Of a stretch of 41,317 nt of DNA, positions 5,367 through 33,777 are shown piece by piece. Numbering within the stretch: position 1 is the stretch's first letter; each line of letters starts with the position of its first letter. The notes beneath the pieces are model-generated. The model saw only the letters and a list, made by a program, of their open reading frames with translations. It ran no database searches and was not told where the DNA came from. A program made the translations under genes and the position numbers. Source of the stretch: Escherichia phage vB_EcoS_HSE2; the sequence record MG252615.1; one strand, written 5' to 3'.

Positions 5367-5651
5367 CTAACTATAATAGCTCGCTATTAGGGTGTCAACC
5401 TGTTTAAACGAACCGACGACAAAAACATTCGCACCACGTTTACGCATCCGCTCGTGCTCGCGTAACTGGTGCGGGTCAGGCTTCGTGTTTTCGTCTTTCT
5501 TAACCTCGACGAACCAGACGATGCCGCCTGGGAGAATTGCCAGCAGGTCGGGGGCGCCGGAACGTCCTTCGTAGGAGAGCTTACGAACGAGGCCGCCAAT
5601 GGCCTCGAATCGCTCTTTTGCGTATTTCTGAATCTTGCCTTCCGGGGTCAT
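5367..5651 (-). CDS. VRR-NUC domain nuclease (PD-(D/E)XK fold)
   Basis: GAPDLL...VWFVEVKK motif pattern, about 94 aa. Confidence 0.6.
   Translation of the reverse strand: MTPEGKIQKYAKERFEAIGGLVRKLSYEGRSGAPDLLAILPGGIVWFVEVKKDENTKPDPHQLREHERMRKRGANVFVVGSFKQVDTLIASYYS
5370..5398 (-). promoter_or_regulatory. Sigma70-type early promoter with palindromic operator in spacer
   Basis: Minus strand TTGACA, 17-nt spacer, TATAGT; spacer carries AATAGC-TC-GCTATT (plus-strand 5375..5388). Confidence 0.6.
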
Positions 5652-12084: not shown

Positions 12085-14322
12085 CTATTCCAAATCCTCC
12101 TCTGTCACCACCAGCATTTCATTCGGTTCGTATATTGTCTTCGGCCTTAATCTATCCCCTATTCTTTCGGGTATACGATATGTTCTCGGTACTACTTCGC
12201 CGTTAGCATCGCAACCAAGCATTAGTTCTCCGTCTTTCAGCATTTTATCAAGATGGGTGTTAGTCACAGAAAAGTCACCGGAACGAGCCACTATCTGCTG
12301 CTGAGTAAAACCGCGACCTGTATCATCCGACTGTTGCAGGTCTTCCAGTGCCGAAAGTATTGACTCCTTCCTTACTTCATCCCTGCCGCGTTTAACTTCT
12401 TCCTTTACTTTTTCTTTACCTTTATCAGATAGCCCTTCTTCCCGCTCTTTCTCCTCGTCGGTCTTGAACGGTTCGAAACCCCACGGCATCAGCACAAGTG
12501 CCTTATGCGGCTCAGGAAGGTCCAGGTTTACGATTGTACCGTATTCCTCCGTGCTGCCCAGGAACTCAACCGCGCGGTATTCTTTCGGCGGCGGGGCTTC
12601 ACGGAACTGTACAGACTCAAGCACCATGCCGACGGTTTTCTGTTGAGGCCCGTGCTTAAATTTCGAGTGGTATACGTTTATCTGGCGGTCGGTAGCGCGT
12701 TCGATTGTCAGCTCGACGTCGACACCTGCATACAGTGCCCCGCTGCCACGGGCTTTCTTTCCACCCTTCGGCGTATGGTGGACAACGCCCACCGCGGCTT
12801 TAGTCGCATCACGTACTTCTTTCAGGATGGCGATAACTTTACCCATACCGATTGCCGTGGACGAACTGTTCTCGTCGAACTTATCAATCGTCAGGGCTAG
12901 CGTCTGGTTAAGGGTATCAAACGCGACCACCCCAATTGGCTCATCGCCAGCAGTTTCACGCATTAACTTAATCAGGCTTTTCAGTTTTCCGACTTCGCCC
13001 ATATCGATAACATGTACATAATCTTTACCTTCCTCGCCATATTTAGCCGCTAGCGCATCAATACGTGTACGTGTAGCTGCACCGCCTTCGCCATCGATAT
13101 AGAAATGGTGGCAACGCTGGGTATCCGCCCCTGCAAACCGGTATCCGGCGGCGCTCAGGTACATCATCCCCAGCGTATAGAATGATTTGTACGTACCAGA
13201 TTCACCGACAATATCCCATATGCAATCTGACGGCATGTAACCTTCTACTACGAAATCAGCCTTTACCGGTTCCGGTAGCTCGTCCTCTTCTGAGCCCTCG
13301 TCTTCCAGGTCGTCGAGGCTGCATGAAACAGATTCACGCGCACCCCATCCGATAGCCTCGGCGACTTCACTGAACGGCAGTCCGGTCGCATCACACGCGT
13401 ATTTCCACACTTCTTTCGGGGGCATTCCTTCGGTCGCGGCAATGTCGGTGTCGTGAATCATGGTTACGTTCGGCGCTTCGTATCCCTCGCGCGGGAAACA
13501 TAACAGGAAGTCGTCCGGGCGTGGTGTCGGGTCGCTGTAGTTTTCTGCGTGTTCTGGCGTAGCTGGCATCTTAAGGCCACGCGGCGTCATGATGCCGCCG
13601 TACTCGAATGCCAGTGCTTCAAACGCATCTGTAAACGCGGTGCGCAGTTCTTCCGGTATCTGGTAATCAGATGCGCTGCTGATGTCAACGGCTGGGACGC
13701 CTTCCAGTAACTCATCAGGGTCAATCAGGTCGTTGCGGCGCGACCAGATAACGGTAGCGCCGACAGGAGGCAAGTACATCGGCTGCGAAAGAGTGAACCC
13801 GCTGCGGTCGGCACCCATGCCTTTGAAGAAGTGCTCCAGTAATCCATGGCGAACACGGATGATGTTGCCGCCTTCGACCGGGCGGGCCAGCGGCATGACG
13901 ACGCGAAAGCGCGGGGCTTCGTCTGTGTGTGATGCCGTGGTATAGAGGCACATCGCCCGCCGGCTGCGCTTAACCAGGCGCACAGCTTCCTGATACTCTT
14001 CCAGGGTTGCACTGTCAAAGTCCAGGTACGCCAGCGACGATTTGCTTACAGACGCGTCGCAGCGATAGAAAAAGCCTTTACGCGCTTGCTTAAAGTCACC
14101 TGTTTCCGGGTCTTTTACGGTGCTGTGCGTAGAGTCGCACGCAGCGGTGATGTAACCAGGTGCGGTCTTCGGGTTAATTCCGTCACGGACAGCATCAAGC
14201 GGCTGGATTAAATCTTTCAGGTCGTCCAGCGTTGCCGTGTGTGTGGTTCTGACGTTTATATCCTTTTTCTCGGCCCGCGCGTTGCGACGAGACCACGAGT
14301 AGGATAAAATTACATCGGACAT
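12085..14322 (-). CDS. Primase-helicase (N-terminal primase-like region, C-terminal RecA-like ATPase)
   Basis: 745 aa; Walker A-like GESGTYKS and RecA/DnaB-like core in C-terminal half; replication-module position. Confidence 0.65.
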   Translation of the reverse strand: MSDVILSYSWSRRNARAEKKDINVRTTHTATLDDLKDLIQPLDAVRDGINPKTAPGYITAACDSTHSTVKDPETGDFKQARKGFFYRCDASVSKSSLAYLDFDSATLEEYQEAVRLVKRSRRAMCLYTTASHTDEAPRFRVVMPLARPVEGGNIIRVRHGLLEHFFKGMGADRSGFTLSQPMYLPPVGATVIWSRRNDLIDPDELLEGVPAVDISSASDYQIPEELRTAFTDAFEALAFEYGGIMTPRGLKMPATPEHAENYSDPTPRPDDFLLCFPREGYEAPNVTMIHDTDIAATEGMPPKEVWKYACDATGLPFSEVAEAIGWGARESVSCSLDDLEDEGSEEDELPEPVKADFVVEGYMPSDCIWDIVGESGTYKSFYTLGMMYLSAAGYRFAGADTQRCHHFYIDGEGGAATRTRIDALAAKYGEEGKDYVHVIDMGEVGKLKSLIKLMRETAGDEPIGVVAFDTLNQTLALTIDKFDENSSSTAIGMGKVIAILKEVRDATKAAVGVVHHTPKGGKKARGSGALYAGVDVELTIERATDRQINVYHSKFKHGPQQKTVGMVLESVQFREAPPPKEYRAVEFLGSTEEYGTIVNLDLPEPHKALVLMPWGFEPFKTDEEKEREEGLSDKGKEKVKEEVKRGRDEVRKESILSALEDLQQSDDTGRGFTQQQIVARSGDFSVTNTHLDKMLKDGELMLGCDANGEVVPRTYRIPERIGDRLRPKTIYEPNEMLVVTEEDLE

Positions 14323-14380: not shown

Positions 14381-14614
14381 TTATTCCAGGTCTTCTAAAG
14401 TGGCTGCCATTCCGCGAACTTCTGCAACGGCGCTATATTTCCCGCCAACGTTTTTCACGACACCGGATTTAACCAGCACCTTTAACGACCCCTCAATAAT
14501 GGCGGAACTATAGTACTTAAAATAACTACGACGCAAGTCGATAACGCTGCACGACCCTTTTTTACGCGTCAACGAAACGACCGCCGTAAATACGCGTAAC
14601 TGGAACTCGGTCAT
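14381..14614 (-). CDS. Small winged-helix-like protein (77 aa) ending in TLEDLE
   Basis: ORF between HTH gene and primase; C-terminal motif shared with two other replication proteins. Confidence 0.45.
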   Translation of the reverse strand: MTEFQLRVFTAVVSLTRKKGSCSVIDLRRSYFKYYSSAIIEGSLKVLVKSGVVKNVGGKYSAVAEVRGMAATLEDLE

Positions 14615-14781
14615 TTTACATTCTCCTTAATCCACGCCTCTACTTTCTCCGGGTCAAATGTACCTGGCTGCCGGCGCCCCATAATGCGGATACAACAATC
14701 CGGGAACTTACCGCTCTTTAACCAGTTATTCAGCGTGCGACGAGTAACCCCGATACGCTCTGCTACCTCGTTCTGTGTCAT
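14611..14781 (-). CDS. Small HTH DNA-binding protein (AlpA/excisionase-like fold), first gene of the primase operon
   Basis: MTQNEVAERIGVTRRTLNNWLKSGKFP; GAGG Shine-Dalgarno 8 nt before ATG at 14781. Confidence 0.55.
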   Translation of the reverse strand: MTQNEVAERIGVTRRTLNNWLKSGKFPDCCIRIMGRRQPGTFDPEKVEAWIKENVK

Positions 14782-14813
14782 TCTCAAACCCTCATTATCA
14801 GTTAACGAAACCA

Positions 14814-14842
14814 AGTATACATTGCGAATAATGGGAAATCAA
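14814..14842 (-). promoter_or_regulatory. Sigma70-type promoter for the primase operon
   Basis: Minus strand TTGATT, 17 nt, TATACT. Confidence 0.5.
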
Positions 14843-14857
14843 ACATAATTGCACCTA

Positions 14858-14886
14858 TTGACATTATGAAAATCTTCGTTTAAGAT
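14858..14886 (+). promoter_or_regulatory. Sigma70-type promoter pointing into the noncoding region
   Basis: TTGACA, 17 nt, TAAGAT; divergent from the 14814..14842 promoter. Confidence 0.45.
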
Positions 14887-15129
14887 GCTTCTATATCTTA
14901 GTTACTTTGATTCCTGTTCACCTTGTAAGAATGTTTAACCCGTGCGTCAAGCAAAGGGTTAAACACAGGCTTACTGAACATGAGAATTATCGTAACTTTC
15001 CTTCCTAAGTATCTCCGGTTGCCCTGGGCAAGCTCTATTCTCATCGGCGGCATATCTCTTAAGTATCTGATTTTCTTAATGTGCCGTAGATTCGCAACCG
15101 TAAAAATGTAACGATTATTGGGCAGGCTT

Positions 15130-15153
15130 AAGGCCTGCCCTTTAGTTACCAAG
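15130..15153 (+). terminator. Hairpin terminator-like element in noncoding region
   Basis: Stem GGGCAGGC/GCCTGCCC, loop TTAAG, then TTTAGTT. Confidence 0.4.
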
Positions 15154-15222
15154 TAATAAGAATAAAGGCACAACACTACCTGAAGAATCACAACGGCAAC
15201 GTAACCATTTTCAATGAATCTC

Positions 15223-15251
15223 TTGCACACCCCAACATAATAGGTTACTAT
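15223..15251 (+). promoter_or_regulatory. Middle-class promoter (conserved 30-nt family) with operator palindrome
   Basis: TTGCAC-ACCCCAACATAATAGGT-TACTAT; palindrome AATAGG-TT-ACTATT (15239..15252). Confidence 0.6.
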
Positions 15252-15370
15252 TCACTTATCGAGGCGAGGCAGGGAGCCAACCTTTAATAAGGTCAGTAGC
15301 GGCGACGAGCATACGAAGAGTCGATAAGCCCGGTAAGCAGAACCTAAATTAACTAAGAGAGAAAAGCTGG

Positions 15371-15688
15371 ATGAAAAAGTTAATCGCAGCAGTAGCAATT
15401 TTATTTTCAGTAAACGCAACGGCAGTGGATATGGATGCATGTGAAGCATTCGCGGATATTACTAAATGGGTTGGAGTGCAGCGTGATATGGGGATTAGTC
15501 AGTCTACTATTTATATGGAACTGCTGGATATTACCTCGAAGAAGAACACAAGCAAAGAAGTTAAAAAACTTCTTAATACAACCGCTTTTAGCGCGACAAA
15601 AATAGCATTTGCGTTGAGCGATAAGTCGCCAGGGGAACTTTATACATGGACATACAACGAATGTGTAAAACACAACGGCAGCGAATAA
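15371..15688 (+). CDS. Secreted/periplasmic protein with signal peptide (105 aa)
   Basis: N-terminal MKKLIAAVAILFSVNATA signal-like sequence; first gene after the middle promoter. Confidence 0.5.
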   Translation: MKKLIAAVAILFSVNATAVDMDACEAFADITKWVGVQRDMGISQSTIYMELLDITSKKNTSKEVKKLLNTTAFSATKIAFALSDKSPGELYTWTYNECVKHNGSE

Positions 15689-19594: not shown

Positions 19595-19616
19595 ATCTAT
19601 TTTCTGTAATGACTAG

Positions 19617-33306: not shown

Positions 33307-33777
33307 CTACTCATGGTTTTCATGGAAACCGTATTTACTCTCGGCGGCTTTACGCGCAGCAACCGCTACATCAAAATCGTCGTAAAGCCCTAAATGCACT
33401 TGTTTGTAGTTAACTTTTATAAACGCGCGCCACTTACCCGCGGCTTTGTGGAAACTTACGCCTGTAGCCCCGGATTTATTTATCTTTCGCATAGTTTTAT
33501 TTTTACTGTTCCCTGTATTGTCGGTGGCGCGTAGATTTTCTATTCTATTGTCTAGCCTGTTATGGTTTATGTGGTCTATTTGAGTTTTCCTGTCTAAGTT
33601 GCATTTATTATAAAGACACCATGCTATGCGGTGGACATACACTGTTTTACCACCCATACCGCAGCACAGATAACCTCTTACACCAACCGTACCAACCTCA
33701 GCACCAGTAGATAACCTGGTAACCCTCCCAGTCTCAGGGCAGTATTTAAATTGTTTTGAAACATCAAGATATTTCAT
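33307..33777 (-). CDS. HNH homing endonuclease with AP2 domain (paralog of 9184..9675)
   Basis: HNH motif IDHINHNRLDNRIEN; AP2-like GATGVSFHKAAGKWRAFIKV...AARKAAESKYGFHENHE. Confidence 0.75.
   Translation of the reverse strand: MKYLDVSKQFKYCPETGRVTRLSTGAEVGTVGVRGYLCCGMGGKTVYVHRIAWCLYNKCNLDRKTQIDHINHNRLDNRIENLRATDNTGNSKNKTMRKINKSGATGVSFHKAAGKWRAFIKVNYKQVHLGLYDDFDVAVAARKAAESKYGFHENHE

Follow-up and report, generated by a model that had tools for sequence, protein, structure and literature searches.

A candidate structured noncoding RNA in a conserved intergenic gap of Kagunavirus and Jerseyvirus phages

Introduction

The 6S RNA of phage lambda, which arises from pR'-tR', is a by-product of Q-dependent antitermination, and the oop RNA of the same phage is antisense to cII. 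The put element of phage HK022 is about 70 nt long, consists of two stem-loops, acts in cis in antitermination and has no terminator directly after it. A transcript primes or activates the origin in the case of ColE1 RNA II and the T7 primary origin, and in type III toxin-antitoxin systems tandem antitoxin repeats of ~36 nt are followed by a terminator and the toxin gene. In this study, we analysed a stretch of 41,317 nucleotides from Escherichia phage vB_EcoS_HSE2 (MG252615.1; this whole stretch is called the window below) and, within it, the gap at 14782-15370 between a leftward and a rightward gene block, where we propose a structured noncoding RNA. The closest known kind is formed by the short structured RNAs of virulent phages that end at premature terminators; in phiKZ and other virulent Pseudomonas phages, ONT-cappable-seq and Grad-seq revealed such RNAs, with candidates residing in 5' untranslated regions (UTRs) (PMC10914365).

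As in phiKZ, a promoter in a lytic phage is followed by a (here predicted) short, highly structured transcript that is free of open reading frames (ORFs) and ends at a hairpin before the coding genes. The locus differs from those RNAs in lacking sequence or Rfam kinship with them, in having a second conserved promoter or operator between the hairpin and the first gene, and in being predicted here from sequence. With lambda 6S and oop it has in common a host-polymerase promoter and, as predicted here, a short RNA ending just before a long co-oriented block (lysis and structural genes), but no Q-like gene or site was identified and, unlike oop, the predicted RNA overlaps no gene. In HK022 put, too, a conserved stem-loop RNA follows divergent early promoters within a few nucleotides, whereas the element here is ~250 nt long and ends in a terminator-like hairpin. 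Similar to ColE1 RNA II and the T7 primary origin, a promoter-driven structured transcript is predicted beside replication genes, but an antisense partner promoter such as that of ColE1 RNA II is absent. The layout is not that of a ToxI-like type III toxin-antitoxin system, as there are no tandem repeats and the downstream gene varies between phages. Neither the gap region nor a replication origin is described in the searchable Guernseyvirinae literature.

Results

The original prediction had placed an ORF-poor plus-strand transcript of about 260 nt in this region, and its length estimate agrees with ours: the inferred start and the tail are ~250-258 nt apart, and no ORF is conserved (Table 1). 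The plus strand of 14892-15150 has a minimum free energy (MFE) of -85 kcal/mol, compared with -56.9 +/- 5.1 kcal/mol in dinucleotide shuffles (z = -5.5); the minus strand reaches z = -4.1.

Table 1. Features of the gap and of its neighbours in the window. Identity was measured per 100 nt between the window and three Jerseyvirus loci over 12.3-16 kb.
Feature	Position	Strand	Description	Basis	Identity to Jerseyvirus (%)
Primase-helicase gene	12085-14322	-	AAA_25 domain	Pfam	58-79
p77	14381-14614	-	77 aa, phrog_5169	predicted winged-helix and disordered tail, pLDDT (predicted local distance difference test) 85	
Helix-turn-helix (HTH) gene	14611-14781	-	56 aa, HTH_17/excisionase-like DNA-binding protein, flanks the gap	Pfam HTH_17, E = 2e-7	85-87
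P_L	14814-14842	-	leftward sigma-70 promoter: -35 TTGATT 14842-14837, 17-nt spacer, -10 TATACT 14819-14814	promoter scan and conservation	
P_R1	14858-14886	+	rightward sigma-70 promoter: TTGACA 14858-14863, 17-nt spacer, TAAGAT 14881-14886	scan, 10/12 consensus positions	
Predicted noncoding RNA	14893-15150	+	~250-258 nt, inferred start to end of terminator tail	fold, no conserved ORF, no Rfam family	
Mechanical ORF	14898-15230	-	110 aa, GTG start	ORF list; not a gene	
Stem-loop SL1	14900-14997	+	98 nt; base helix AGUUAC/GUAACU, three more helices, internal loop CCUU, variable tip	covariance model R1, alignments A3 and A4	72-78 (SL1 region)
SL1 tip	14932-14965	+	inverted repeat GTTTAACCC/GGGTTAAAC; ends in a small GUCAA-type pentaloop hairpin	repeat search and relatives	
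Linker	14998-15018	+	UUCCUUCCUAAGUAUCUCC, pyrimidine-rich, unpaired; copy 1 of TAAGTATCT	MFE and consensus folds	
Noncoding block	15001-15200				86-95
Central hairpin	15019-15050	+	UUGCC.CUGGG ... CUCA..GGCGG	RNAalifold consensus; sole consensus helix besides SL1	
Conserved core block	15058-15100	+	CUUAAGUAUCUGAUUUUCUUAAUGUGCCGUAGAUUCGCAACCG; copy 2 of TAAGTATCT	sequence conservation	
3' domain	15108-15150	+	outer helix GUAAC/GUUAC (15108-15112 with 15145-15149) around GC hairpin; tail UUUAGUUACC	terminator-like call	
'Middle promoter'	15223-15252	+	TTGCAC 15223-15228, 17-nt spacer, TACTAT 15246-15251; overlaps AATAG-GTTA-CTATT 15239-15252	sequence and repeat count	
Leader of first rightward gene	15277-15370	+	non-conserved	homology to relatives stops at ~15276	

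Evidence for an RNA comes from SL1, which begins only ~7 nt past the inferred start of transcription. A covariance model built from 13 Kagunavirus sequences aligned 38 forward copies (33 unique) from Kagunavirus and Jerseyvirus, and the fold was common to all 30 distinct homologues. Across both genera, 15 of the 34 pairs occurred with at least two Watson-Crick types (e.g., G-C, A-U and U-A atop the GUAAG/CUUAC helix), and the aligned cells comprised 1028 Watson-Crick, 50 G·U, 9 A·C and 34 other combinations. Within Kagunavirus only (18 distinct rows), 95.1% of cells were paired, compared with 30-41% when the partners were slid by 1-3 columns; both sides changed in six pairs; and the covariation score was 0.159, against 0.074 +/- 0.008 in shuffles, none of 500 reaching that value. 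A plain MAFFT alignment, made with no structure fitting, still gave 99.5% pairing and three compensatory pairs. Compensatory substitutions, one mark of a small RNA (sRNA) gene, are present in SL1, and the excess of G·U over A·C pairs (50 vs. 9) indicates an RNA of the plus strand.

The central hairpin pointed to the same strand. Its cells were paired in 98.6% of cases, with one-sided changes only (U·G to C-G, U-A to U·G and G·U to A-U), and G·U stood at four positions in 78 cells, in up to all 33 sequences, against only 3 C·A cells, which again fits the plus strand. At the SL1 tip, relatives carry at least five unrelated sequence versions, all of which form hairpins, and the plus strand was the more stable in 17 of 19. 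The repeat at this tip, first predicted as a perfect 9-bp inverted repeat at about 14931-14962, is indeed perfect, but its exact extent is 10 bp, 14932-14941 with 14956-14965. A likeness of the tip to a stretch within the HTH gene was rejected, as the tip varies and the HTH gene does not, and a long-range pairing of 14861-14874 with 15069-15082 (93% complementary) was discarded, being neither kept nor covarying in relatives. The hexamer AGTTAC/GTAACT has 37 copies genome-wide, compared with 19.2 +/- 4.0 expected (none of 100 shuffles reached 37); three of the copies are helix bases of the predicted RNA.

Downstream of SL1, the two exact copies of TAAGTATCT at 15006-15014 and 15060-15068, 54 nt apart, are the only ones in the window. 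The stretch 15051-15108 is strongly conserved, yet RNAalifold predicted no consensus structure there. We also considered that the linker might act antisense on the ribosome-binding site of the gene starting at 33777. Among 225 start regions this one scored best, with pairing at 14 of 15 positions and -22.5 kcal/mol (z = -3.5), but about one such hit is estimated to occur by chance and the candidate was rejected. That gene (33307-33777, minus strand) encodes an HNH endonuclease between conserved genes, probably a homing endonuclease; a minority of relatives have it, the junction being covered in 38 of 260 records. The HNH gene is sporadic and missing from most relatives.

The 3' domain contains a GC hairpin (hairpin 2), GGGCAGGC/GCCTGCCC, in which 15120-15127 pairs with 15133-15140, followed by the tail TTTAGTTACC at 15141-15150. 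The original prediction had this hairpin and its T-tail right but placed them at 15130-15153, about 10 nt too far to the right, and the T-run is only 3+2. Hairpin 2 was called terminator-like on the plus strand in the window; the same site was called in a Jerseyvirus locus (L019; L-numbers are our handles for loci), and the hairpin of cassette type C, described below, was called likewise. One compensatory change, C-G to U-A, occurs in eight loci, and the tail is invariant save for one last-base change (L261). In three loci (L015, L261 and L263) hairpin 2 has the reverse complement of the usual loop (CTTAA for TTAAG) between identical flanks, which looks like a DNA-level inversion of the palindrome centre.

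Both divergent promoters of the original prediction, minus strand at 14814-14842 and plus strand at 14858-14886, are present, with hexamers conserved in relatives. Among the Kagunavirus and Jerseyvirus relatives examined, neither P_L hexamer varies, unlike the spacer between them. P_R1 has the form TTGACA-17-TAAGNT in 16 of 18 unique variants, its spacer sequence differing between genera, and 12-16 nt separate its -10 hexamer from SL1 across variants. The raw promoter scan was at chance level (4 hits vs. 3.0 +/- 1.8 in shuffles), so the two promoters are credible because their hexamers are conserved and not because of the scan count. Across variants the P_R1 -10 fits the consensus at only 3-4 of 6 positions, and the scan misses P_R1 in most relatives because their -10 (TAAGGT or TAAGTT) has only 3/6. 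Transcription from P_R1 would start at ~14893, and P_L is predicted to serve the operon of the HTH gene, p77 and primase-helicase. A promoter of its own, conserved in position and hexamers, as is looked for in a stand-alone sRNA gene, is thus provided by P_R1.

Absence of a conserved reading frame is another mark of an sRNA gene, and when the homologous loci were compared none was kept in relatives on either strand of the gap. Indels between the genera in the gap are not multiples of three. The three plus-strand ORFs (33, 43 and 10 aa) were rejected as genes, with neither frames nor start codons kept; the 43-aa ORF, for example, loses its ATG at 14980 (ACATGAG becomes ACATAAG, ACACAAG or ACATTAG). 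In L005, L007, L010, L014, L017, L019, L020, L022 and L024 the minus-strand ORF is either missing or present in truncated or shifted form. The earlier view that it is no gene stands, since the frame is broken in most relatives and its GTG start has no spaced Shine-Dalgarno sequence. A real gene here is close to excluded in our judgement: a few records annotate a hypothetical protein (e.g., Bas73_0055), but frameshifts, stops or indels interrupt it in most relatives, the start has the defect just named, and most records annotate nothing there.

Region 14600-15400 matched 237 phage records at 80-96% identity, from Kagunavirus of Escherichia and Jerseyvirus of Salmonella (Guernseyvirinae), with Escherichia phage BUCT823 as the closest match; by these matches the window phage is Kagunavirus-like, within the subfamily Guernseyvirinae. 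A more sensitive search with 14850-15160 as the query found the element in 397 phage records, most of them with no annotation across the match. Noncoding 15001-15200 was, across both genera, the best-conserved part of the 12.3-16 kb compared, and its identity fits strong constraint. Rfam 15, with families such as 6S RNA, Y RNA-like, C4/CI-type phage RNAs and known sRNAs, gave no match at the gathering thresholds in the whole window or in eight related loci spanning all cassette types, and at E <= 10 returned only chance, terminator-driven hits (AS-pc01, 21.7 bits vs. a threshold of 79; Hrs12, 19.4 vs. 70). No match to the element was found in 5,426 E. coli genomes and 72,556 plasmids. Scans with a 26-nt core pattern retrieved only four records in metagenomes and one in genomes, and collection scans with too-short patterns retrieved mainly chance hits. 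A scaffold assigned to Taishania pollutisoli (scaffold22, 18,987 bp, NZ_JACVEL010000022.1; a Flavobacteriia-type assembly; L254) carries the Jerseyvirus element, identical to that of L018 over the 221 nt compared (SL1 and core); phage DNA contaminating the assembly is the likeliest explanation.

In related phages, non-homologous cassettes occupy the same site. Among 38 unique gaps pooled from IMG/VR, metagenomes and GenBank, we distinguished at least four 5' cassette types, A (window and Jerseyvirus), B (L026), C (L032) and D (L125), and three versions of the 3' hairpin, GGGCAGGC, GGGTGGGC and GGTGCC; 5' and 3' parts occur in differing combinations. Every type has a rightward promoter, an ORF-poor stretch, a GC hairpin and the block 15183-15276. 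The promoters are TTGACT-17-TAAGCT in C, TTGACA-16-TAAAAT (11/12) in D and TTGAAA-18-TATAAT in B. The core pieces TAAGTATCT, CTGAT, TGCCGTAG and AACCG recur across all these otherwise non-homologous types, the module joints fall within the conserved core, and gap length is 459-499 nt except where an extra gene is inserted. Structure exceeded that of shuffles in type A (z = -3.9 to -6.5) and type B (z = -5.1), and the plus strand had the lower z in six of seven cassette representatives, with a tie in L032. Just upstream of the 3' hairpin, at the equivalent of ~15100-15130, type C carries a (CTCA)n microsatellite, with 3-4 copies in L032 and ~7 in L028 and L111.

Beyond the hairpin lies the element first described as a middle promoter. 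It is present, but its sigma-70 likeness is weak (7/12 consensus, not returned by the promoter scan), and it is a copy of the palindrome AATAG-N4-CTATT (extended form TATAATAGGnTACTATTCA), which recurs across the genome. The window has 8 exact copies and 13 with at most one mismatch, compared with 0.95 expected, at 5375, 9156, 11763, 11807, 15239, 16277, 16600, 26820 and 35164 and, weaker, at 19612, 24711, 26911 and 40988. The palindrome matches the consensus of the repeated 'phage promoter' of fBC-Eco01, tgAATAGTa-ccTATTat-T (PMC9825357), and probably serves the phage as a middle/late promoter of its own or as an operator to which a dimeric regulator binds. All cassette types retain the block 15183-15276 around it. 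We rejected a third GTAAC/GTTAC helix around this promoter, as relatives have GGATAC or GGGTAC instead.

As for the flanks, the HTH gene starts in the window at ATG 14781 and not with the longer TTG-started ORF, in keeping with its annotation as 171 nt in the relatives K1ind1, XY1 and Bas73. The left edge of the gap is therefore 14782, which corrects the region of 14815-15370 first proposed, whose right edge stands. Annotated relatives carry on the left the 171-nt HTH gene and then, leftwards, a 234-nt gene and the replicative helicase-primase, and on the right small rightward genes that vary from phage to phage. In L015, L016 and L250 an additional short leftward ORF of ~140 nt lies between the HTH gene and the gap (equivalent to ~14781). 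The first rightward gene of the window (15371-15688, plus strand) encodes 105 aa with a signal-peptide-like N-terminus (MKKLIAAVAILFSVNATAV) and has no Pfam match; other phages carry different genes there. All genes downstream of the gap are co-oriented as far as 33 kb.

In the leftward operon, the nearest folds to p77 are the N-terminal domain of T4 MotA and the DNA-binding domains of LexA, MarR and IclR, all of them weak matches (E >= 1.7e-3). Its tail ends in EDLE, the same last four residues as in the primase-helicase (…TEEDLE), and this common acidic tail suggests a shared docking partner; the tails of T7 gp4 and gp2.5 offer a case for comparison. The protein occurs only with type A cassettes, and type D has a distant 91-aa relative ending in DLE (L125). 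Types B and C have unrelated proteins of 70 aa (p70) or 96 aa (p96) (L032:2668-2880 and L037:2668-2958); in type C either of the two may be found, and there are two different primase N-termini, that of L032 being different (L032:3074-end). The early replication module is mosaic, because unrelated small proteins (p77, p77-like, p96 and p70) fill the slot after the HTH gene. A strict partnership of cassette type, small protein and primase allele was rejected, since it holds only for A with p77 and D with the 91-aa protein; the linkage of p77 to its cassette may be a lead to a protein partner, be it of an origin or of an RNA, or equally simple physical linkage. Gene-level counts from the sole transcriptome study of a Kagunavirus, that of K1B4, whose reads are public (PRJCA028359 / PRJNA939978), class the HTH gene as early and an AAA-domain gene as middle (PMC12645636), the latter presumably the primase-helicase.

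Discussion

We consider that the gap most likely encodes a structured plus-strand noncoding RNA of ~250 nt, which is made and is itself the functional product, and give this reading a probability of about 0.6. It brings together a noncoding region, a conserved SL1 structure with compensatory changes, a plus-strand pairing bias, a conserved promoter and hairpin, and the presence of the element in ~400 phage genomes. From these features we infer that the region is transcribed, where the RNA begins and ends, that it acts as a free RNA and not as a leader, and anything that might be said of a target. Early in infection, host RNA polymerase would start at P_R1 while P_L fires in parallel and drives the early HTH gene. 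The transcript would fold at once into SL1, followed by the pyrimidine-rich linker, the central hairpin and the conserved unpaired core, and would end at the GC hairpin and its UUUAGUU tail (15120-15147); ~75 nt further on, the rightward genes would have their AATAG-N4-CTATT promoter/operator, under separate control. Protection of the RNA would come from the hairpins at its two ends, and the conserved unpaired linker and core would be the likeliest working surface, by base-pairing or protein binding. We would class the element as a family of structured phage RNA that has not been described before and is in no RNA catalogue.

Several observations weigh against a functional RNA of this kind. The -10 of P_R1 is mostly weak in relatives (TAAGGT and TAAGTT, 3/6 consensus). 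The difference in folding energy between the strands of the whole element is small, the plus strand being more stable in 13 of 17 sequences by a mean of 2.5 kcal/mol. In SL1 many pairs are invariant, a large share of the covariation comes from the single split between Kagunavirus and Jerseyvirus, and alignments A3 and A4 favour pairing because they were fitted to the model structure. At the 3' end the U-tract is short (UUUAGUU, with a T-run of only 3+2), the alternative hairpin GGGTGGGC...GCCCACCC (h2b) has no adjacent T-run and was not called terminator-like, and SETP3-type Jerseyviruses are without hairpin 2. In cassette types C and D the degree of structure does not clearly exceed that of shuffles (z = -1.1 to -2.1), and the high identity of 15001-15200 between the genera could come from recent module exchange and not from purifying selection.

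The structure might instead serve in cis, with P_R1 transcripts forming the 5' leader of the rightward operon, read-through governed by conditional termination or put/nut-like antitermination, and the short RNA a by-product. We regard this as unlikely, although the position of SL1 so soon after the inferred start resembles that of put-type elements downstream of early promoters, as in HK022. The terminator is imperfect and absent in SETP3-type phages, the downstream genes are all co-oriented to 33 kb, and short RNAs from premature termination in 5' UTRs are known from virulent phages (PMC10914365). On the other hand, the rightward operon needs no P_R1, because a conserved promoter/operator of its own (15223-15252), a member of the genome-wide family, lies past the hairpin and before the first gene; no antiterminator gene was identified, and the element has no similarity to any Rfam cis-regulatory family. 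Control at the DNA level only seems very improbable; here the HTH_17 and winged-helix proteins would use the inverted repeats as operators, or the repeats would be conserved linkers for module recombination, and no functional RNA would be made. Two small DNA-binding proteins are encoded next to the gap, GTAAC/GTTAC occurs six times in 14900-15250 and AGTTAC at twice its expected frequency genome-wide, the recombination joints of the cassettes lie in the conserved core near TAAGTATCTGAT, and the inverted loop of hairpin 2 in some phages is a DNA-level event. Operators would keep their sequence, however, whereas SL1 keeps its pairing while its sequence changes, and the GTAAC arms differ in spacing (86, 32 and 38 nt). 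The G·U excess in SL1 and the central hairpin (50 to 9 and 78 to 3) also argues against double-stranded palindromes or cruciforms, because those need pairing on both strands.

A further alternative is a replication origin at which the primase-helicase and/or p77 initiate in the gap, either with the P_R1 transcript opening or priming the DNA or with plus-strand DNA hairpins as loading sites. We think this improbable, though the neighbouring replication genes and the linkage of p77 keep it in view, and in a single-stranded DNA hairpin a G·T wobble would be tolerable too. About 70 nt separate the gap from the start of the leftward operon with p77 and primase-helicase (the primase-helicase's own start is ~460 nt away), p77 is a predicted winged-helix protein with the EDLE tail of the primase-helicase, and its occurrence with the type A 5' domain, and that of its distant relative with type D, would suit an initiator; G+C content is lowest, 28-33%, at 14780-14930, and the cumulative GC-skew has its minimum at ~15 kb. 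That AT-rich stretch is simply the promoter pair, however, and the pairing of cassettes with small proteins and primase N-termini breaks down in type C. The skew follows gene orientation and is no guide to replication, because its turn at ~15 kb coincides with the switch of gene strand and it flips again at 33-35 kb beneath minus-strand genes; the skew analysis called for in the original prediction gave no evidence of an origin. As to an iteron-type origin, marked by at least three direct repeats beside an AT-rich element, the gap holds no tandem repeats or iteron array, just the two 9-mers TAAGTATCT. The P4-type iteron TGTTCACC inside SL1 was rejected, since it has 3 copies in 41 kb against 1.3 expected, which is no enrichment, and the primase-helicase is of the AAA_25 type and not P4-alpha-like. 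The original prediction had left open a replication origin or a noncoding RNA; the RNA half is supported by an ORF-free gap, a promoter and terminator-like hairpin, the compensatory changes of SL1 and more G·U than A·C pairs, while the origin half has no positive evidence.

A decidedly speculative reading, to which we give little weight, is that the locus is a swappable slot for RNA cassettes, with a fixed frame (P_L/P_R1, core motif, AATAG-N4-CTATT and constant length) into which non-homologous 5' and 3' RNA modules reassort, the RNA being the determinant of specificity. The 5' module would then travel with alleles of the neighbouring early proteins, such as the winged-helix p77 with type A, and the RNA might match its initiator as an origin or primer RNA, or else serve as a decoy or in immunity, diversified by selection from host defences or competing phages. 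If so, hundreds of Jerseyvirus and Kagunavirus phages would carry an early phage RNA of a new class.

Phages of these two genera are widely isolated as therapy and biocontrol candidates against Salmonella and E. coli, and their early regulation has barely been studied. The block 15001-15200 is more conserved than the primase-helicase gene, yet has no protein product and is unannotated in most records; the spurious 'hypothetical protein' on the minus strand of a few records can now be removed. Provided that the RNA is made, the ~400 members would constitute a new family of phage RNA, with a clear structure model and fit for Rfam-style curation, and SL1, the unpaired core and P_R1 would be handles on the switch from early to later expression or on the start of replication.

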